This document shows, piece after piece, positions 4,235 through 12,482 of a stretch of 34,413 nucleotides of DNA. The DNA comes from Treponema sp. (GTDB lineage: Bacteria > Spirochaetota > Spirochaetia > Treponematales > Rectinemataceae). The notes beneath the pieces were generated by a model. The model ran no database searches, was not told the origin of the DNA, and worked only from the letters and a program-made list of their open reading frames with translations. A program made the translations under genes and the position numbers. Where the stretch lies: assembly GCA_017849315.1 (NCBI GenBank), contig JAFIHQ010000105.1, forward strand, positions 1 through 34,413, read 5' to 3'. Within the stretch, counting starts at the first letter, position 1. Each line of letters begins with the position of its first letter.

Positions 4235-7200
4235 TTACACCGATCTTGACGAACAAAACGTTTTTTGCGTCAGTTCATCGGCGATCATCTCTGCCTGTTT
4301 GAGCACAGTTTCTGTCGCTAGCGCCTGCATATCTGGCGGATAGCCGTACTGTCGCAGCGTGCGCTTAACCATCACCTTGAGCCTTGCCTTCACGCTTTCC
4401 TTTATGGTCCAATCGATTGTGGCGTTCTGCCTTACCTTTTGATAGAGAACTATGGCGAGTTCCCGCAGTGTTTCCTTCTGCATCAACTCTTGTGCGCTCG
4501 TGTTATCCGCAATTGCAGTGTAAAAAGCATATTCATAGTCCGATAAACCCATCTCCGCCGGTTGCTTATCTATACGCTGAATTTCTTTGCTTAACTCGAT
4601 CAGTTCATCGATCACTTCGACAGCGGTGACGACCTTGTTGTAGTATCGCTGAAGAGACTCTTCCAGCATCTCCATAAGAGTATGGCTCTGCACTAGATTT
4701 TTCTTCATTCTCCCCTTGATCTCGTCGTTTAAAAGCTTCTTTAACACCTCCACTGCGATGTTTTGGTGCTCCATGTTCTTTACTTCTAGCAGGAATTCTT
4801 CAGAAAGGATGGAAATATCCGGTTTCTTTATACCGGCTGCATCAAAGACATCGATTACCTTTTCCGTGACCAAAGCCTGGTCGATAATTTGCTTGACGGT
4901 GGTCTCTATTTCTTCATCTGTTTTCCCACTTCCCGTGCTATCAAACTTCACCAGTCTGGCTTTCACCGCCTGATAGAACGCCACTTCTTCCTTGACTGCT
5001 GTCGCCCGCTCGTGTGGAATAGCGATGGCGAACGCCTTTGATAGGGCAGTAACTTCATCAACATAACGTTTTTTGCCGTCTTCAAGACCAAGAACATGAT
5101 CCTCGGCGGCGAGAATAATCGACAGGCGTTCTGAAGTGCTTGCGGTAAAATATCGCTGGTAATTGAATCCGTGAAACATCTGCGCAATGACTTCCAGCTT
5201 TTCAAGCATAACCTGAACAGCCTCTTCCTGAAGGACCGCAGGATCGCCCCTGCCGCCACTGTCAGCATAAAAGGCAAGCGCCTCTTTCAAATCAGCGGCA
5301 ATCCCGAGGTAATCCACGATCAGGCCACCAGGCTTGTCCTTATAGACCCTATTTACCCGCGCGATTGCCTGCATCAGTGTATGCCCTCTCATGGGCTTAT
5401 CAAGATACATAGTGTGAAGACATGGCACATCGAAGCCAGTGAGCCACATATCGCACACGATGACCAGTTTGAGTTCATCCTGCGGGTCTTTCATTCGCTC
5501 CGCCAGCATGCGCCGTTGTTCCTTTGTGGTGTGGTGCCGTGAAAGCTCAGGGCCATCCGATGATGCAGAGGTAATAACCACCTTGATGGAACCCTTTTTG
5601 AGGTCATCGTCCTGCCATTCTGGTCTTATTTTGATTATTTCATCATAGAGGCTGACGGCGATGAATCGAGACATCGCCACCACCATGGCTTTACCTTCAA
5701 AAGCCTGCTGGCGCTGCTCGAAATGAGACACAATATCTTTTGCAATGTGCCGAATTCGATCGCTGCTCCCTATCAGCGCTTCCAGCTGAGTCCATTTAGC
5801 CCTTGTCTTTTGTGTTTCGGCAAGTTCATCGAGTTTGAGTTCCTTATCCAGGTCGTTGATGAGTCTTTTCCCCTGTTCACTCAATTCGATTTTTGCGAGT
5901 CTGCTTTCGTAGTATATCTTCACGATGGCGCCGTCTTCCTGCGCTTGTGAGATGTCGTAGATGTCGACATAGTTACCAAAGACAGCTGGAGTGTTTCTAT
6001 CCTCTTTTTCTATTGGTGTACCCGTAAAACCGATATAGGTGGCATTGGGCAGGGCATCCCGCATGTACTTGGCAAAACCATACACGGTTTTTTTGCCAAC
6101 CACGTTTCCCTGTTCATCCTTTTCGTCTATCGTCTTTGCCCTGAAGCCATACTGGGTTCGATGAGCCTCATCGACGATTACCACGATGTTCCGTCTATCG
6201 GATAGCTGTGGATATATGTTACCCTCTTCCGGCTGGAACTTCTGAATCGTAGTAAAGACCACACCACCCGAGGCGACGTTGAGCAGTTCTTGTAAGTGTT
6301 CTCTATTCTCCGCCTGAACAGGATCCTGCCTGAGGAGTTGTTTTGAGGACGCAAAGGTATCGAAAAGCTGGTCATCCAGGTCGTTCCTGTCGGTAATGAC
6401 TAATATTGTTGGATTATCCAGCATTTGAATGATCTTGCCTGCAAAGAACACCATGGAAAGCGATTTTCCGCTTCCTTGCGTGTGCCATATCACGCCTCCC
6501 TTATGATCTCCCACAGCCTGAGTACGCACACTGGCAAGTCCATAATTCTCAGGGGCTTCTTTGACACTACCGGCCTCCTTTACGGCGGCATAGCCAGACG
6601 CCCGCAGGGTAGACTCCACAGCCTTATTTACCGCAAAATATTGATGATAGTAGGCCATCTTCTTGACAGTCTGAATGGATACGATACCAGTTTCTTTATC
6701 CTCTCTTTTGGATTTTTCAAACACGATAAAATGATGAATAAGGTCAAGAAGCGTTTTTTTGTTCAGCATGCCTCTGATAAGGGTTTCGAGCTGGCTTACC
6801 AGCCTGGATTCGTCCTTTGTGCCATCTATTGATTTCCACGCCATAAAATGACTGTAACCAGAGGAGATGGAGCCTGCCTTTGCCTCGAGCCCATCGGAGA
6901 TCACGATGAAGCCGTTATACGTAAATATGCCCGGAATCGTCTGTTTATAGGTTTGAATCTGGTTAAAGGCGGATCGCACTGTTGCCTGTTCATCTGCCGG
7001 GTTCTTCAACTCCATGACGACAAGTGGAATGCCGTTGACAAATAGGACGATGTCGGGACGCTTGTTGTTGTTACCTTCTATAACGGTATATTGATTGACC
7101 ACTAGAAATTCGTTGTTTTCTGGATTCTTATAATCGATGAGCCATACCAAATCTCCCCGTTCTACACCATCCCTTCTGTACTGTACCCGAATTCCTTCCG

Positions 7201-7483
7201 TGAGCATTCTGTGAAAGGCTTCGTTGTTTACAATGAGTTCTTGCGACCCAAAGCGCTGAATCTGCTTGATAGCATCGTCCTGCGCATCGACAGGAACTCC
7301 CGGGTTGATGCGTCCAATAGCGTTCCTCAGCCTTTGTAGTAAAAGCACTTCCTCCAAAGATTGCCTCTCCGCCCTATCCCCATCCGGCGCAATATCGGGA
7401 CCGGCACAGCACTGGTAGCCGTTTCCATCAAGGAGTTCGATGGCAAATTCTTCGATATCAGATTCGGTGATTCTGGAAGCCAT
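4235..7483 (-). CDS. hsdR: Type I restriction endonuclease, R subunit (HsdR)
   Basis: N-terminal PD-(D/E)xK-like motif PDIVLFVNGIPLVVMELK, helicase motif I HTQGSGKS, DEAH box VIVDEAHRTQ, and the long helical C-terminal domain typical of HsdR. I prefer the ATG at 7483 (AAGAGGG SD 4-5 nt upstream) over the ORF-track ATG at 7504. Confidence 0.95.
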   Translation of the reverse strand: MASRITESDIEEFAIELLDGNGYQCCAGPDIAPDGDRAERQSLEEVLLLQRLRNAIGRINPGVPVDAQDDAIKQIQRFGSQELIVNNEAFHRMLTEGIRVQYRRDGVERGDLVWLIDYKNPENNEFLVVNQYTVIEGNNNKRPDIVLFVNGIPLVVMELKNPADEQATVRSAFNQIQTYKQTIPGIFTYNGFIVISDGLEAKAGSISSGYSHFMAWKSIDGTKDESRLVSQLETLIRGMLNKKTLLDLIHHFIVFEKSKREDKETGIVSIQTVKKMAYYHQYFAVNKAVESTLRASGYAAVKEAGSVKEAPENYGLASVRTQAVGDHKGGVIWHTQGSGKSLSMVFFAGKIIQMLDNPTILVITDRNDLDDQLFDTFASSKQLLRQDPVQAENREHLQELLNVASGGVVFTTIQKFQPEEGNIYPQLSDRRNIVVIVDEAHRTQYGFRAKTIDEKDEQGNVVGKKTVYGFAKYMRDALPNATYIGFTGTPIEKEDRNTPAVFGNYVDIYDISQAQEDGAIVKIYYESRLAKIELSEQGKRLINDLDKELKLDELAETQKTRAKWTQLEALIGSSDRIRHIAKDIVSHFEQRQQAFEGKAMVVAMSRFIAVSLYDEIIKIRPEWQDDDLKKGSIKVVITSASSDGPELSRHHTTKEQRRMLAERMKDPQDELKLVIVCDMWLTGFDVPCLHTMYLDKPMRGHTLMQAIARVNRVYKDKPGGLIVDYLGIAADLKEALAFYADSGGRGDPAVLQEEAVQVMLEKLEVIAQMFHGFNYQRYFTASTSERLSIILAAEDHVLGLEDGKKRYVDEVTALSKAFAIAIPHERATAVKEEVAFYQAVKARLVKFDSTGSGKTDEEIETTVKQIIDQALVTEKVIDVFDAAGIKKPDISILSEEFLLEVKNMEHQNIAVEVLKKLLNDEIKGRMKKNLVQSHTLMEMLEESLQRYYNKVVTAVEVIDELIELSKEIQRIDKQPAEMGLSDYEYAFYTAIADNTSAQELMQKETLRELAIVLYQKVRQNATIDWTIKESVKARLKVMVKRTLRQYGYPPDMQALATETVLKQAEMIADELTQKTFCSSRSV

Positions 7484-7496
7484 TTTGCCCTCTTTT

Positions 7497-7561
7497 TGTC
7501 TCATCTATGAGACATATCTCGTTTTGTGTCTCACAAAATGCATTCCGTGAGACACAAAACG
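7497..7561. repeat. Nested inverted repeats built on TGAGACA/TGTCTCA, immediately upstream of hsdR
   Basis: TGTCTCA (7497-7503) / TGAGACA (7508-7514). Perfect 15-bp arms CGTTTTGTGTCTCAC (7520-7534) / GTGAGACACAAAACG (7547-7561) around a 12-nt loop that contains the palindrome AATGCATT. No U-tract follows on either strand. Confidence 0.9.
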
Positions 7562-7685
7562 GTCCCAAAATGAGAAATATATGCTAAATTCTTTCTACTC
7601 CTAACATCTTGCGTAAGTAATATAACTTGCACTGTATCTCTACTGTTGTTCTTCAGAAATTCAAATACAAATTCATCAACATTGG

Positions 7686-8330
7686 TCATTCCTTGTCCTC
7701 CTTAAAAGCCTTCAGCTCTGTTAGATATGCATTATAATCAACATAAAACAAGATTTCACTCGCAGAATAAGAATAGTCCCCCATATCAAAATCACCATAA
7801 CTTTCATCCAATAAGTCATTGAACTCTGCATTATCATCAAATGATATTTTATCCTTATATGTTTCAATATGTCGTCTAGGATTCTTATTCTCAAAAGCTC
7901 TAATAAGAAATGTAGCTATTATTTCCGTTGAATCTATAAGGAATTCTCTTGTCATTTCATCAACTCTACTATTGCGCTCTTTCAGCTCTTCTAACTCTTT
8001 GCCATGTGCCGTTATCCCTATTTCATTTCTAAGATTACCCATCTCTTGACCAATGCTTGCTAATGCAGTAGAAATATGATTCACCAATTCTTGATTGGCG
8101 TATCCAAGTGAATTAAATGCTTGTTTCAAAATTTTATTAGTAGTTGCATTTTCTTCAATTGAAATGTTTTTTAATTTACATATTTCTTTACAGATTGTTT
8201 CAAGTAGCGACTTTGCATTCTCAAATGCCGTGCTAAAGTCGTCCTGAATGTAGGTATCTATTCTTTGAGTATAAATTCGTAAATCAGACCATCGTCCATA
8301 TTGTTCAATTACTTGATTGAGCTTTTTCAT
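7686..8330 (-). CDS. Abi_C-like (abortive-infection C-terminal domain) protein embedded between hsdS and hsdR
   Basis: 214 aa. The central segment IGQEMGNLRNEIGITAHGK...EFLIDSTEIIATFLIRAFE resembles the RN..G.AHG signature plus following helix of the Abi_C family. Acidic, aromatic C-terminal tail. Very AT-rich (14/60 GC in 8101-8160). Confidence 0.6.
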   Translation of the reverse strand: MKKLNQVIEQYGRWSDLRIYTQRIDTYIQDDFSTAFENAKSLLETICKEICKLKNISIEENATTNKILKQAFNSLGYANQELVNHISTALASIGQEMGNLRNEIGITAHGKELEELKERNSRVDEMTREFLIDSTEIIATFLIRAFENKNPRRHIETYKDKISFDDNAEFNDLLDESYGDFDMGDYSYSASEILFYVDYNAYLTELKAFKEDKE

Positions 8331-8353: not shown

Positions 8354-9547
8354 TCATAATTTCACCCTGACCTCTCTGCTCATCAGTTTTGGAAGCAAAG
8401 TGTCACGAAGTTTTTCAAGAGTGCGGATTTGCATTTTATTGCATAAAATCCTCTTGATTATTGGATTCGACTTGGAAGAAAAAAGTTCAAGCTTACTTTT
8501 GGGAGGTATACGCATCTTTATTCTTAGTGTTTCTACTGGGCTTAAATTCGGTTGGGCAGTTCCTTTGGCCATTTCTTCTAGTAAACGTTTTGTCTTCTCC
8601 ATTCTAAAGTATATGTATGTGTATGCCATATCTCTACTATTTTTGGCAAAAAGTTTCGCAACTCTCTGATTCAATAGAGCATTATTCACGTCAACAAGAC
8701 AACACCTTCCAACATTACCGGTAAGCGACAATAAAATATCGCCAGGTTTCAAATAGCAATAATTCGGCATTCTTGAAGGAATATCATTTATCTTATCAGT
8801 CTTTGAAATATCTAGATGGCCATCCTGTACAGATTTAATTGTTATTAAGCAATACTTGCCTAACTCTGTGAATAAGTCTGACTTAAATGGAAAACCCGGA
8901 AGAATATCTATCATATTAGCTATTGTTCCTTCCTCCCACTTCTCATCCGCCTCTTCAATAAACCACTGCCGAAACAGCGCCTCTGCCATCTGCTCCAATG
9001 TATGGTTTTCCCGGTTAAGCAAGTCTATCTTGTCGTCAAGACTGGAGAGCACAGAGGCAATGGTGCGCTGTTCGGGAAGTGGAGGAAGAAGAATTTCAAG
9101 ACTTTCAATATCTGCTGGTCTTAATGAAGGGTATGCTGAAGTTGATGCTTCTGCGATTATATCTAAATATTCTACAATTTCATGAGATGTCAGAAAATAA
9201 TAAATGAAAAAAGAATCTGCCTCTTTCTGATTTGTCTCAATTACTATAAATCCTGTTGAAACTACAAGGTTTGGAGGAGGATTTTTGATTATTCCATAAT
9301 GTCTTTGAATAGGCCTTACTGTTGAATAAATAATATCTTTATCTTTTACAAGTCTTTTTGCTCGGCTTGGTGCATCAGATAATAAAAGTTCCTGATAGCA
9401 ATCAACCTTCCCTCGCGTTATTGAGCTAGTATCTAAGTATAATATTTTATTTTGTGAATATTCATTATCAATGCTATTTCTATTTATTTCCGCAACCTCT
9501 CCCAGCTTGCATTCCCTCCATCCTTCCGGTATTCTGTCAGCCATCAT
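8354..9547 (-). CDS. hsdS: Type I R-M specificity subunit (HsdS), two target-recognition domains
   Basis: Two variable TRDs separated by the conserved central helix LPPLPEQRTIASVLSSLDDKIDLLNRENHTLEQMAEALFRQWF, with a matching C-terminal helix ...IRTLEKLRDTLLPKLMSREV. The start overlaps the upstream hnh stop (ATGA). Confidence 0.9.
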   Translation of the reverse strand: MMADRIPEGWRECKLGEVAEINRNSIDNEYSQNKILYLDTSSITRGKVDCYQELLLSDAPSRAKRLVKDKDIIYSTVRPIQRHYGIIKNPPPNLVVSTGFIVIETNQKEADSFFIYYFLTSHEIVEYLDIIAEASTSAYPSLRPADIESLEILLPPLPEQRTIASVLSSLDDKIDLLNRENHTLEQMAEALFRQWFIEEADEKWEEGTIANMIDILPGFPFKSDLFTELGKYCLITIKSVQDGHLDISKTDKINDIPSRMPNYCYLKPGDILLSLTGNVGRCCLVDVNNALLNQRVAKLFAKNSRDMAYTYIYFRMEKTKRLLEEMAKGTAQPNLSPVETLRIKMRIPPKSKLELFSSKSNPIIKRILCNKMQIRTLEKLRDTLLPKLMSREVRVKL

Positions 9548-10095
9548 GCCTCTCCTTCCACACGCAGATCCAGGTCAAGTACCGACAGTCTTTTTCCTCC
9601 GCAGTTGCTGTCCAGAGTTCCATTGCACTGGTGGCAGTAGTAAATGGTCTTCAGGTATTTCTTTTCAAGAAGCTCTGGGATGATGTCTGATGTGTTTTCA
9701 TCGGGATATAGCTCCTCGTAAAAGTGGTACAGTCCCTTCGTGCCCTTCCTAGAGTTGCAGGTTCTGCATGCCCATATCTGGTTGTGTATACCTTGGATCC
9801 GATCGCAGGTGGAACAGCGTTCGTTGATATTGAGTGAACGAGGAACAATGTGTTCCCAGCTCAAGCCGCTGGTGCTATCGCAGTAGATGCATTGTTTCTC
9901 CATTTCCACGAGCTGCCGGTCTTCCCGCAGTATTTCTGACCATTTCTTTTCATCGTTTTTCAATTCGCGAAAGGTTTTCTTGATAAAACCATACGACGTT
10001 GCCTTTGCATCCAGGCCAAAGGCGCTCTTTGCGATGATCTTTGCATATTGATAATAGATAAGGTCTCGTATTGTCTGTACTTCTCTATCAGGCAT
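9544..10095 (-). CDS. HNH endonuclease with four CxxC motifs (zinc-finger HNH), embedded in the R-M operon
   Basis: CIYCD...LSWEHIVPRS...HNQIWACRTCNSRKG is an HNH core. CxxC pairs: CIYC, CSTC, CRTC, CHQC. GGGAGG SD 6 nt upstream. Overlaps the ORF6N stop by 8 nt and the hsdS start by 4 nt. Confidence 0.8.
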   Translation of the reverse strand: MPDREVQTIRDLIYYQYAKIIAKSAFGLDAKATSYGFIKKTFRELKNDEKKWSEILREDRQLVEMEKQCIYCDSTSGLSWEHIVPRSLNINERCSTCDRIQGIHNQIWACRTCNSRKGTKGLYHFYEELYPDENTSDIIPELLEKKYLKTIYYCHQCNGTLDSNCGGKRLSVLDLDLRVEGEA

Positions 10096-10438
10096 AACAA
10101 GCCTCCCGCTTAATACTAACTTTTATCGCTGTTTCACTATGCAGAACAGTGGAAAGCATTGCTGCACCCTGCTCTGTAAATGCGTAGGGAAGATAGCGCC
10201 TGCCGCCCCAACTTGAGGTCACAATTTGTGACCTCAAGATTCCCATTTCAGATTCATTAAGCTGAAACATGAATTCAAGAGGAAATCGTTCTCTGTTTCG
10301 TTTTACTGCTTGATTCAACACCTTCGTTTCTACACCATAAAGCGCAGATAGATCTTCATCCAGCATCACCTGTACTCCACGAATTGTGTATATCCTGTTT
10401 TGAATATCTTCAACGGACACAAGTTCGTTTTCACTCAT
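10088..10438 (-). CDS. ORF6N-domain (KilA-N/Bro-N-related DNA-binding) protein
   Basis: [45 protein letters not shown]...EM is the characteristic ORF6N domain sequence. The start overlaps the hsdM stop (ATGA). Confidence 0.8.
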
Positions 10439-11979
10439 TTTATCTCAATCTTCTTCAAATTTTCCATTATGAGCCTGTTTAGTCGTTCTTCCTCTTTTAG
10501 CTCCTCCTCGAACTCTGCCTTTAACGCTGCAAAACGCTCATTAAAGTCAAAATCGTCTTCTTCATCGGGTAACCCCACATAGCGGCCGGGAGTGAGTACG
10601 TAATCCAGCTCTCGCACCCTTTCGATAGACGCAGAATTGCAGAACCCCTTTACGTCCTGGTATGTGCCGTTGGGATTTCGCCAGTTGTGATAGGTTGATG
10701 CAATCTTTTCTATGTCTTCGTTAGAAAACTCGAGCGTTCTGCGATTGATAAGGTGTCCCATGTTTCGGGCATCGATAAACAGAATCTCGTCGGTGCGGGT
10801 ACGATAGCCACCATTTGCCTTGTTCCTGCTGACAAACCATAGGCAGGCGGGTATCTGGGTGTTCAAGAATAATTTTGGAGGAAGGTTAACAATGCAGTCA
10901 ACGAGACGATCTTCAATGATCTGCTTCCGTATCTCTCCCTCACCTGATGTCTTCGAGGTAAGCGAGCCTTTTGCAAGTACAAACCCGGCAGCGCCGCTCG
11001 GGGCAAGATGATAAATGAAGTGCTGCACCCACGCGTAGTTTGCATTTCCTTCAGGCGGTACGCCATACTTCCATCTTCCATCTTTCCTGAGTAACTCCCC
11101 ACTCCAGTCGCTGTCGTTAAAAGGTGGATTGGCAAGCACATAATCCGCTTTCAAGTCCTTATGCGCATCGTTTAAAAATGAGCCTTCGTTGTTCCATTTG
11201 ACCTGTGAGCTATCTATTGCTCGTATGGCGAGGTTCATCTTGCAGAGCCGCCACGTGGTGAGGTTGCTCTCCTGACCATAGATAGAGATATCATTTACTC
11301 TGCCCTGATGTTGGGCGACAAACTTTTCCGACTGCACGAACATCCCGCCAGAGCCACAGCAGGGATCGAACACCCTACCTTTGTAGGGTTCGAGCATCTC
11401 GACAAGTAACTCTACAACGCTCCGGGGAGTATAGAATTGGCCTCCCTTCTTTCCTTCTGCAAGGGCAAACTCGCCAAGAAAGTACTCAAACACATGGCCC
11501 AGTACATCGGCGCTTCTGGCTTTTGCATCGTGCATGGCTATATTGCTGATAAGGTCAATAAGCCCACCAAGGTTCGCAGGGTCAAGATTGCCCCGGGCAT
11601 ATACCTTTGGCAGCACATCCTTGAGCGATGGATTCTCCTTTTCGATGGCATCCATGGCTGCATCAACAATGGTACCTATCGTGGGTTTCTTCGCCTCCGC
11701 TTGCAGGAATGACCAGCGAGCTTCATGAGGAACAAAAAAGACGTTCTCCGCACGATACTCATCTCTATCTTCGGGGTCTGCTCCCGCATACTCCCCTTCG
11801 CCTTTTTTCAGCTTCTCGTACAGGCTTTCAAAGGCATCCGATATGTACTTGAGAAAAATTAAGCCCAGAACGACATGCTTGTATTCCGCAGCATCTATGT
11901 TTTTTCTGAGCTTGTCAGCAGCCTTCCAGAGCTGTTTTTCCAGTGGTTCTTCTTGCCAGTTATCGTTTTTCTTTGCCAT
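10435..11979 (-). CDS. hsdM: Type I R-M N6-adenine DNA methyltransferase subunit (HsdM)
   Basis: HsdM_N-like N-terminus (LWKAADKLR...[16 protein letters not shown]), AdoMet motif [13 protein letters not shown], and catalytic motif IV LANPPFN. Confidence 0.95.
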
Positions 11980-12062: not shown

Positions 12063-12482
12063 GACGAGCAGGTCAAGGCAATAGTCACGTTCGAGGCAAA
12101 CAAACAGGAAATGAACCTCCAGCAGGTTGGAGAAGCCTTAAAAGAGGCTCTAGCGCACTATGGAGCCCCTTGTATATTCAATACTGATCAGGGCAGCCAG
12201 TTTACGTCGAATACGTTTATACATCTTCTCCAGGAACAGGGGATAAGAATCAGCATGGATGGCCGCGGCCGCTGGCGGGATAACGTGCATATCGAACGGC
12301 TCTGGAGGACGGTCAAGTACGAAGACATCTATCTCCAGGGCTATGAAAACGTACGGTCGTTAAAACGGGGCCTTGCTTCGTACTTTATAGTTTATAACCA
12401 GTATAGGTTCCATCAGAACCTGGACTACGAGACGCGCGACCACCGCTATCGTTCGTTTCAGGCAAAGGATTTGGTAGCATGA
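12063..12482 (+). mobile_element. IS3-family transposase (rve/integrase core) 3' remnant, 5'-truncated pseudogene
   Basis: ...CIFNTDQGSQFTS...ISMDGRGRWRDNVHIERLWRTVKYEDIYL...YNQYRFHQNLDY matches the C-terminal DDE region (D..GSQ; DN..IERLWR.LKYE) of IS3-family OrfB. The in-frame upstream sequence runs into a stop at 12060-12062. No N-terminal HTH, OrfA or first catalytic D region is present. Confidence 0.8.

Follow-up and report, generated by a model that had tools for sequence, protein, structure and literature searches.

Two probably independent passengers between hsdM and hsdS of a Treponema type I restriction-modification operon: a PDC-S05 stub and an HNH nuclease gene

The window studied here, the 34,413-nucleotide (nt) contig JAFIHQ010000105.1 of a Treponema sp. 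assembly (GCA_017849315.1), carries a type I restriction-modification (R-M) operon in which two small genes separate the methyltransferase gene hsdM from the specificity gene hsdS, one encoding a protein with an ORF6N domain (designated ORF6N') and the other a protein with an HNH nuclease core. An earlier note on this sequence took the two genes for a dedicated, translationally coupled pair. Comparison with sister operons and with HNH homologues from other genomes points elsewhere: the hsdM-hsdS gap is probably a slot that holds two independent passengers, the decayed stub of a PDC-S05 gene and a live, autonomous HNH nuclease gene. The 116-amino-acid (aa) ORF6N protein of the window corresponds to the 5' third of a ~292-aa PDC-S05 gene, and the overlap that gives the appearance of translational coupling with the HNH gene is the scar of a deletion. 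The HNH family, for its part, is independent both of ORF6N and of R-M loci, and it has been transferred between phyla, into many contexts, as a unit the size of its open reading frame (ORF). The features on which the argument rests are as follows.

10435-11979, minus strand: hsdM, 514 aa, methyltransferase subunit of the type I R-M system, bounding the cargo slot on the left
10088-10438, minus strand: ORF6N', 116 aa, remnant of a ~292-aa PDC-S05 gene
10109-10117, minus strand: deletion junction, where ORF6N-derived sequence ends and the leader of the HNH gene begins
10102-10107, minus strand: GGGAGG Shine-Dalgarno sequence of the HNH gene, now within the tail of ORF6N' (a direct reading of the sequence)
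9544-10095, minus strand: HNH gene, 183 aa, predicted stand-alone beta-beta-alpha-Me nuclease
8354-9547, minus strand: hsdS, 397 aa, specificity subunit with two target-recognition domains; right wall of the slot

The ORF6N' stub and the deletion behind its overlap

The genes on the minus strand follow one another in the order hsdM, ORF6N', HNH, hsdS, abiC and hsdR. The stop and start codons of hsdM and ORF6N' share an ATGA (4-nt overlap, 10435-10438), as do those of the HNH gene and hsdS (4-nt overlap, 9544-9547), and ORF6N' and the HNH gene overlap by the 8 nt ATGCCTGA (10088-10095). The earlier note was right about the position of the two genes and the overlap of all three junctions, and both genes are, as it stated, insertions in the hsdM-hsdS gap.

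The stub retains the ORF6N domain in full (PF10543, E = 1e-35, model positions 1-86 of 86, residues 14-98), and the protein matches three PDC-S05 models of PADLOC with E-values down to 2e-50 (PDLC04869). It covers only positions 9-117 of the 306 positions of PDLC04869; the PDC-S05 models span 177-306 positions, of which the stub reaches the first ~110, and ORF6N homologues are usually 165-300 aa long. A metagenome scan recovered sister operons that hold the intact form. At two of these loci, L082 and L086, where HsdM is 97% identical to that of the window, the ORF6N protein has 292 aa, is 95% identical to the stub over residues 1-110, and matches PDC-S05 from end to end (419 bits; model positions 9-301 in L082). 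The full ORF6N gene is followed at both loci by a 108-nt spacer and then by the same HNH gene.

Alignment with L082 by BLAST places the event that produced the stub. Window positions 10700-10112 correspond to positions 4739-5327 of that locus and window positions 10115-9496 to positions 5968-6587, such that homology stops at ORF6N codon 109-110 and restarts 20 nt upstream of the ATG of the HNH gene, skipping ~640 bp. A TATTCA microhomology is found at both parental deletion sites, and because homology skips the ~640 bp between these TATTCA copies the 116-aa ORF is identified as a deletion product. The deletion took everything past codon 109-110 together with most of the 108-nt spacer; the leader upon which the truncated gene now abuts is also found upstream of the HNH gene in L001, L082, L086 and L099. 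As a result, the stub reading frame runs across the Shine-Dalgarno GGGAGG and terminates at a TGA 8 nt into the HNH gene. Another locus, L173, holds the unmutated deletion product, TATTCAGCTGGAG...ATGCCTGA, and in both truncated sub-lineages the ribosome-binding site is strengthened to GGGAGG. With the 8-nt overlap explained as the scar of a ~640-bp deletion in a 292-aa PDC-S05 gene, the proposal of a dedicated coupled pair loses its footing. The spacer itself (L082 5877-5995; also in L086, L099 and L001), mostly deleted in the window, contains the perfect hairpin TGCACAGGCGCTGTGCA, and can also be read as a 39-codon ORF bridging the two genes, from the ATGA at the ORF6N stop to the TGA inside the start of the HNH gene.

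What the window copy has lost is apparent from an AlphaFold2 (AF2) model of the full-length sister protein (P0391), which consists of the ORF6N domain, long helices at residues 102-154, and a C-terminal alpha/beta domain. Foldseek searches with this model retrieved TrmBL2, vaccinia F13, FAM83, NucT, Zucchini, PLD3 and Tdp1, which identifies the C-terminal domain as a phospholipase D (PLD) fold, and PF13091 (PLD-like) is precomputed for some members of the PDC-S05 family. A search of the PDB by sequence with the full protein returned nothing, and the PLD fold was seen by fold search alone. The domain carries an invariant motif, H246-D-R248...D253...G261-A-S263, reminiscent of the HKD signature of PLD enzymes. 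The window has lost both the coiled coil and the PLD-fold domain, and tblastn found no remnant of the latter elsewhere in it. The window copy is thus like other PDC-S05 genes in its position in the hsdM-hsdS gap, where the full-length members sit, and differs from them in retaining the N-terminal third only, the presumed effector domain being gone. 'Guilt by embedding' in BREX, DISARM and type I R-M loci is how the PDC candidates came to be recognized (Payne et al., bioRxiv 10.1101/2024.01.29.577857). One PDC-S05 representative reportedly cut the plating efficiency of T7 and T5 ~1,000-fold and was protective in E. coli B; a RhuM domain was described in the protein tested, which may represent a different sub-family (bioRxiv 10.1101/2024.09.26.614923). 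ORF6N, identified here as PADLOC's PDC-S05 with one representative reported as protective, is therefore less obscure than the earlier note had supposed in calling it uncharacterised. A literature search on ORF6N, and on KilA-N combined with PLD, found no mechanistic paper.

The order in which the two passengers arrived can be read from more distant operons. In L088-L096, L104 and L117, where HsdM is 74-85% identical to that of the window, hsdM, a full-length ORF6N gene and hsdS follow one another and the HNH gene is absent; within this operon family, HNH joins ORF6N only where HsdM is 94-97% identical. ORF6N/PDC-S05 is accordingly the older resident and HNH a later addition, in accord with the embedded origin of the PDC candidates, and the full PDC-S05 gene is what this operon family usually carries in the slot. 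ORF6N' followed by HNH is a common metagenomic arrangement (L002, L081, L083-L085, L087, L161-L164 and L173). ORF6N-only stubs of independent origin also occur, at L106 (1843-2169), L125 (5001-5372) and L172 (553-897; P0131) and in P0126 and P0132. Those of L106 and L125 arose by in-frame internal deletions that preserved the native stop, those of L172/P0131, P0126 and P0132 are truncated at the same domain boundary, and L172 has the order hsdM, stub, hsdS with no HNH gene. In all, PDC-S05 genes between hsdM and hsdS have lost the PLD-fold part independently at least five times, with the complete ORF6N domain kept in every case, which suggests either that carrying the effector has a cost or that the stub persists for the sake of uninterrupted translation along the operon.

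The HNH protein and its family

The HNH protein is composed of a helical N-terminal domain (residues 1-65), an HNH core with a Zn-binding insert (66-120), and a helical C-terminal region (121-183) with a CHxxC motif and a VLDLD tail. The four CxxC pairs (C69/C72, C94/C97, C110/C113 and C154/C157) as well as H82, H104, N105 and N114 are invariant or nearly so among 79 homologues, and C69, C72, H82, C97, H104, N105, C110, C113, N114, C154, H155 and C157 are fully invariant. The AF2 model (predicted local distance difference test score 84.7, predicted template modelling score 0.83) places N-terminal helices at 9-26, 30-33, 35-47 and 49-57, and in the core strands at 78-82 and 106-110 and a helix at 111-117. 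The earlier note's description of a catalytic core with four CxxC pairs thus holds across the family, as does its account of a helical N-terminal domain that could not be assigned: the modelled helices are there, and the N-terminal 65 aa returned no family or fold match. Pfam's HNH_5 scored the window protein at 25.1 bits, under its cut-off of 27.5; more distant family members pass PF01844 and PF14279. Foldseek matched the cores of Cas9 and of phage HNH proteins with a probability of 0.9-1.0 and E-values of only 0.03-1. Sequence and fold searches of the PDB with the whole protein found nothing beyond the core, the weak matches to Tad2 and 4h9d not being significant, and the full architecture had no relative among solved or viral-predicted structures.

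The family is highly conserved. Its ratio of nonsynonymous to synonymous substitution rates (dN/dS) is 0.09-0.13, indicating strong purifying selection, and its members, grouped in 737 clusters at 90% identity, are ~170-200 aa long nearly throughout and 55-95% identical across phyla that include Spirochaetota, Bacteroidota, Planctomycetota, Omnitrophota, Elusimicrobiota, Ignavibacteriota, and some archaeal metagenome-assembled genomes (MAGs). At 50% clustering, 776 representatives were retrieved at E <= 0.001 and 26 at 1e-30, so the core family is compact. A few copies, a small minority of the 80 loci surveyed, appear degraded: that of L028 has a premature stop after codon 4 (8001-8015), and that of L030 (8001) has a TTG start and no intact ORF. 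Two distant relatives of 466-475 aa (P0258 and P0337) have the HNH core and C-terminal region fused to an N-terminal region, both with PF18780 repeats, and the N-terminal region of P0337 matches a ROS/MucR-type zinc finger weakly.

The extreme N-terminus is a signature of the family. The pattern M-P-D..V is invariant in the 79 homologues, and Met-Pro is kept even in the distant P0290, P0302 and P0265. A constraint on the DNA of the ATG-CCN-GAY start, such as a built-in stop or a recombination site, was considered and rejected, all four Pro codons being used about equally; the constraint on Met-Pro therefore acts on the protein. The N-terminal MPDREVKTIRD bears a loose resemblance to the N-terminus of Fpg/Nei, PELPEVETVRR, where the Pro is the catalytic nucleophile, and it is enticing to speculate that the HNH protein might possess a second, Fpg/Nei-like lyase chemistry. 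The notion that the N-terminal domain is a displaced ORF6N C-terminus was also discarded, since the real C-terminus of that protein, a coiled coil and a PLD fold, is unrelated.

The distribution of the family separates it from its neighbours in the window. Relatives of the HNH protein number 149 in 185,579 species genomes, none was found in 50,697 phage genomes, and the PLSDB plasmids yielded one match and the 2.9 million contigs of IMG/VR two; the family is rare and in essence cellular, being all but absent from phages and plasmids. The contexts of the 80 best genome loci (~77 in some counts) were surveyed by tblastn with the proteins of the window, and the four nearest neighbours were annotated by Pfam and PADLOC scans. 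A type I R-M system surrounds the HNH gene only in L001-L004 and L014 (~5 of the 77-80 loci), a few more loci having hsd fragments within 8 kb, and over 90% of the species genomes sampled carry the gene somewhere other than an R-M locus. An ORF6N gene lies within ~1.1 kb upstream only in L001, L002, L025, L034 and L080. In other hsdM-hsdS gaps the HNH gene is preceded by SoFic (L003), a Schlafen/helix-turn-helix gene (L004) or a GIY-YIG gene (L014); both ORF6N and the type I enzyme are thus dispensable for it. The earlier note had allowed that occurrence of the pair at random with respect to R-M loci would count against it, and across the 80 loci the pair is not specifically tied to them; nor does a long joint association with hsdM and hsdR fit a slot in which ORF6N came first and a nuclease gene found mostly elsewhere came later.

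No conserved partner emerged when the ~1,040 neighbouring ORFs from the 80 loci were clustered, the largest cluster spanning at most 14 loci with no fixed position, and no conserved flanks, terminal inverted repeats or noncoding RNA were found beside the gene beyond closely related pairs. Its neighbours include defence-type genes (SoFic, Schlafen-like, DUF559, GIY-YIG) and housekeeping genes (histidine kinases, electron transfer flavoprotein (ETF), radical SAM enzymes, enoyl-CoA hydratase); in two cases it sits between IS3 elements, and in another it stands by itself, with a WD40 gene on one side and an ETF operon on the other. In five loci of Pirellulales and Phycisphaerae (L051, L058, L061, L064 and L072) a GajA/OLD-like ATPase-TOPRIM gene precedes it, with a 72-92-aa KTSC-domain protein between the two in at least three, and the ATPase, KTSC and HNH genes may constitute a three-gene module distinct from Gabija and Septu. 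Stand-alone GIY-YIG ORFs of 75-119 aa were seen beside or near the HNH gene at four otherwise unrelated loci (L014 7532-7891, L052 41-361, L173 173-400, L022 4641-4958), the L014 copy sitting in another hsdM-hsdS gap.

The boundaries of homology establish the unit of transfer. Between the window and nearly every other locus, nucleotide homology begins no more than ~10 nt from the ATG and ends near the stop codon. Pairs that are 80-94% identical within the ORF (among them L053/L067, L058/L059, L043/L060 and L046/L067) lose all homology 0-20 nt from the start or stop and have unrelated neighbour genes. Three MAGs hold two copies on different contigs, for which a binning error is possible. In the R-M-embedded sub-clade, a leader of ~100 nt with a hairpin moves with the gene (L001 versus L003); it is mostly deleted in the window.

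The surrounding operon

The walls of the slot belong to a type I R-M system that is complete and intact by Pfam, PADLOC and NCBIfam, and two further features fall downstream of hsdS.

7686-8330, minus strand: gene with an Abi_C domain (PF14355, E = 3.4e-8), in a second cargo slot, the hsdS-hsdR gap
4235-7504, minus strand: hsdR, restriction subunit with intact nuclease and motor domains

HsdM is recognized by N6_Mtase (PF02384, E = 1.5e-109), HsdM_N (PF12161, E = 1e-26) and PADLOC's MTase_I (E = 7e-210), and its gene has a dN/dS of 0.04-0.08 relative to its relatives. HsdS is matched by Methylase_S (PF01420) in two stretches and by Specificity_I (E = 9e-89), and HsdR by HSDR_N, SWI2_SNF2, ResIII and T1RH-like_C as well as TIGR00348 (E = 7e-182, 606 bits against a cut-off of 285). 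The contrast in base composition noticed earlier is borne out, with a G+C content of ~46-48% in the HNH gene, 39-44% in ORF6N', ~50% in hsdM and ~47% in hsdR versus ~31-44% (mostly ~35%) in hsdS and ~32% in abiC. Where HsdM, ORF6N and HNH are 92-97% identical (L081-L087 and L099-L102), HsdS is mostly only 35-38% identical (67% in L086). This subunit is being exchanged much more rapidly than the other parts of the operon, and its low G+C content is explained by that. The hsdS-hsdR gap is likewise a cargo slot, its Abi_C gene being present in L081, L083, L086 and L002 and not detected in L082, L087 and L099-L102. In the window this gene is followed by an overlapping 52-aa ORF (7531-7689), which is also gene-called in L161. 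A plasmid megablast with the whole operon as query found no close relative. Directly upstream of hsdM, an rve-type integrase core fragment of 123 aa, the remnant of an insertion sequence (IS), occupies 12111-12482 on the plus strand and is annotated in L161 as well, which suggests that the whole R-M island lies at an IS-marked boundary.

Alternative explanations and relation to known systems

If the slot holds two independent passengers, as appears probable, the HNH protein would be translated from the hsd polycistronic mRNA, no convincing internal promoter for it having been found, and would act alone as a Zn-stabilized beta-beta-alpha-Me DNA nuclease or nickase with no need for ORF6N or HsdM/S as partners. 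The general base would be H82, and the metal would be held in place by N105 and N114, with one Zn site presumably formed by C69/C72/C110/C113 and the second by C94/C97/C154/C157 or H155. Its most likely role would be that of a second, R-M-independent layer of attack on invading DNA. Targets would probably be discriminated by the conserved helices of the N-terminal domain together with the invariant Pro at its start, and recognition of modified or damaged DNA is our best guess as to its basis. ORF6N' is most likely non-functional as a defence effector and may be retained because it lets translation continue into the genes beyond it, or as a fragment that binds DNA. More tentatively, and with clearly more doubt than conviction, the ~180-aa HNH gene can be proposed as an undescribed, ORF-sized mobile nuclease gene marked by Met-Pro, its own helical N-terminal domain and a two-zinc core, acting either against phages as a new one-gene system or for its own benefit as a nuclease that moves about as a bare ORF, for which the R-M slot would be one of many landing sites.

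Several points weigh against this reading. Nuclease activity and a part in phage defence are predictions from sequence for the whole HNH family, and recognizable defence neighbours are found at only about one-third of its loci, as estimated from the neighbour tables. Many copies stand amid housekeeping genes, which leaves room for a purely selfish role. ORF6N genes occur upstream of HNH in the distant loci L025, L034 and L080, above what chance alone would give, and the frequency of the ORF6N'-HNH variant would also fit a selected new pairing. The stub has a dN/dS of ~0.2-0.4, a value drawn from only 12-15 substitutions in a gene with a recombinant-mosaic 5' end (dS is 1.46 over the first 35 codons), and this value, below ~1, together with the recurrence of stubs in several lineages, means that the stub may keep a function.

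The main rival regards the HNH gene as a selfish, homing-endonuclease-like mobile ORF that landed in the slot by chance and confers no benefit on the host, an explanation that seems rather unlikely and yet stronger than any other alternative. The confinement of homology to the ORF at 80-94% nucleotide identity amid unrelated flanks would be expected of such an element, but the gene has neither terminal repeats nor a target or insertion site that is conserved between loci. The two copies on different contigs in three MAGs, the lone copies among housekeeping genes and in IS-rich regions, the fusion of distant relatives to PF18780, the 'homing endonuclease associated repeat', and the recurrence of a small GIY-YIG ORF alongside are similarly suggestive. 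They must be set against the near-absence of the family from phages, plasmids and IMG/VR contigs, the fact that no HNH copy was found in an intron or intein, and the noticeable frequency of defence neighbours (type I R-M, GajA-like, SoFic, PDC-S05 and Schlafen-like). Strong purifying selection over the full length of the protein, with few degraded copies, is also unlike the cycle of gain and decay of homing genes. Phage free-standing HNH homing endonucleases are nonetheless the closest parallel to this behaviour, being single-ORF mobile units with an HNH core. Matches in BFVD are to phage HNH proteins, over the core only, and PF18780 is shared by distant relatives; the family in the window differs in not occurring in phages, having no conserved insertion site and another N-terminal domain, and being strongly conserved.

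Retention of ORF6N' as a small DNA-binding regulator of the operon, of the C-protein/RptR kind, with HNH as unrelated cargo, is improbable. Its KilA-N/Rha-type DNA-binding fold, with weak Phage_pRha matches in relatives, and the repeated retention of the domain after loss of the effector would suit a regulator, and in RptR a small protein that regulates type I R-M islands is already known (PMC12255303). The stub has nevertheless lost the helices needed for dimerization, and no operator-like repeats turned up, in a survey that included no search aimed at them. Its retention is equally explained by translation run-through, the in-frame fusions of L106 and L125 keeping the native stop.

Less probable still is an effector swap, in which, after loss of the PLD domain, the ORF6N domain and the adjacent HNH protein would cooperate in trans as a rebuilt, sensor-plus-nuclease PDC-S05. 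The whole ORF6N domain is indeed kept, the stub's dN/dS is not 1, the variant is present in at least three sub-lineages and many contigs, and the GGGAGG ribosome-binding site is strengthened in both truncated sub-lineages; yet similar stubs arose in operons that have no HNH gene (L106, L125 and L172), operons with full-length ORF6N plus HNH are equally common, the long helices, through which oligomerization probably occurs, are missing from the stub, and HNH occurs in dozens of contexts devoid of ORF6N. The least likely explanation, and a very improbable one, is the dedicated coupled module working with the type I enzyme, as a second nuclease recruited by HsdM/S or a regulator-nuclease pair: the overlap of all junctions, the same arrangement in several metagenome contigs, an HNH G+C content near that of hsdM and hsdR, and an upstream ORF6N in 5 of ~77 genome loci are outweighed by the deletion scar and the sister operons with a 292-aa ORF6N and a 108-nt spacer, by the fact that over 90% of the species genomes sampled have HNH away from R-M loci, by the unrelated genes that precede it in other hsdM-hsdS gaps, by an HsdR with its own intact nuclease domain, and by ORF6N stubs that arise with no HNH at hand.

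Two independent passengers in one slot would be in keeping with what is established for other type I R-M operons, in which PrrC, TgvAB, DarTG2 and PDC candidates are embedded (PMC12707154, PMC11411939, PMC12255303, bioRxiv 10.1101/2024.01.29.577857). PrrC of EcoprrI, TgvAB of V. cholerae VPI-2, DarTG2 of enteropathogenic E. coli and the Campylobacter rlo genes resemble the genes of the window as accessory defence genes placed between hsd genes and co-transcribed with them, and they act independently of restriction or in a complementary manner (PMC12707154, PMC11411939, PMC12255303). The proteins themselves differ from those of the window, and PrrC is almost exclusive to type I R-M systems, whose inhibition it senses, whereas the HNH gene is found mostly elsewhere, flanked by hsd genes in ~5 of 77 loci. 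The best PADLOC match of the HNH protein is to PtuB of Septu (E = 9e-6, residues 39-120), but this similarity is weak and covers only model positions 38-113 of 268, PtuB structures were not retrieved by Foldseek, and the window has no PtuA-like ATPase, the neighbours being ORF6N' and hsdS. ABC/OLD-type ATPases occur upstream of HNH in only ~5-7 of the 77 loci, and these match GajA/OLD, not PtuA. With McrA-type (type IV) enzymes the HNH protein shares a stand-alone cellular HNH architecture, a Zn-binding CxxC core and the lack of a partner methylase, and some source databases label its homologues 'McrA' via COG1403; it differs in having no recognizable modified-base-binding domain, with no significant sequence or fold match past the core. 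A putative role as a modification-dependent nuclease may nevertheless be considered.

Embedded accessory genes in type I R-M operons, and PDC-S05 itself, are already known, and the ORF6N half of the locus is ordinary and degraded; the locus represents neither a new type of R-M enzyme nor a new two-protein system. What it displays is how passengers turn over between hsdM and hsdS in a type I R-M operon, and the independent loss of the same PLD effector elsewhere suggests that this effector is costly to carry. For annotation it serves as a warning, as short 'ORF6N proteins' in R-M loci are often stubs, not intact genes. The HNH family, by contrast with the ORF6N half, is uncharacterized and missed by PADLOC v2 save for weak PtuB matches, and, being highly conserved and exchanged between phyla, it is a reasonable candidate for a single-gene defence system or a mobile nuclease.

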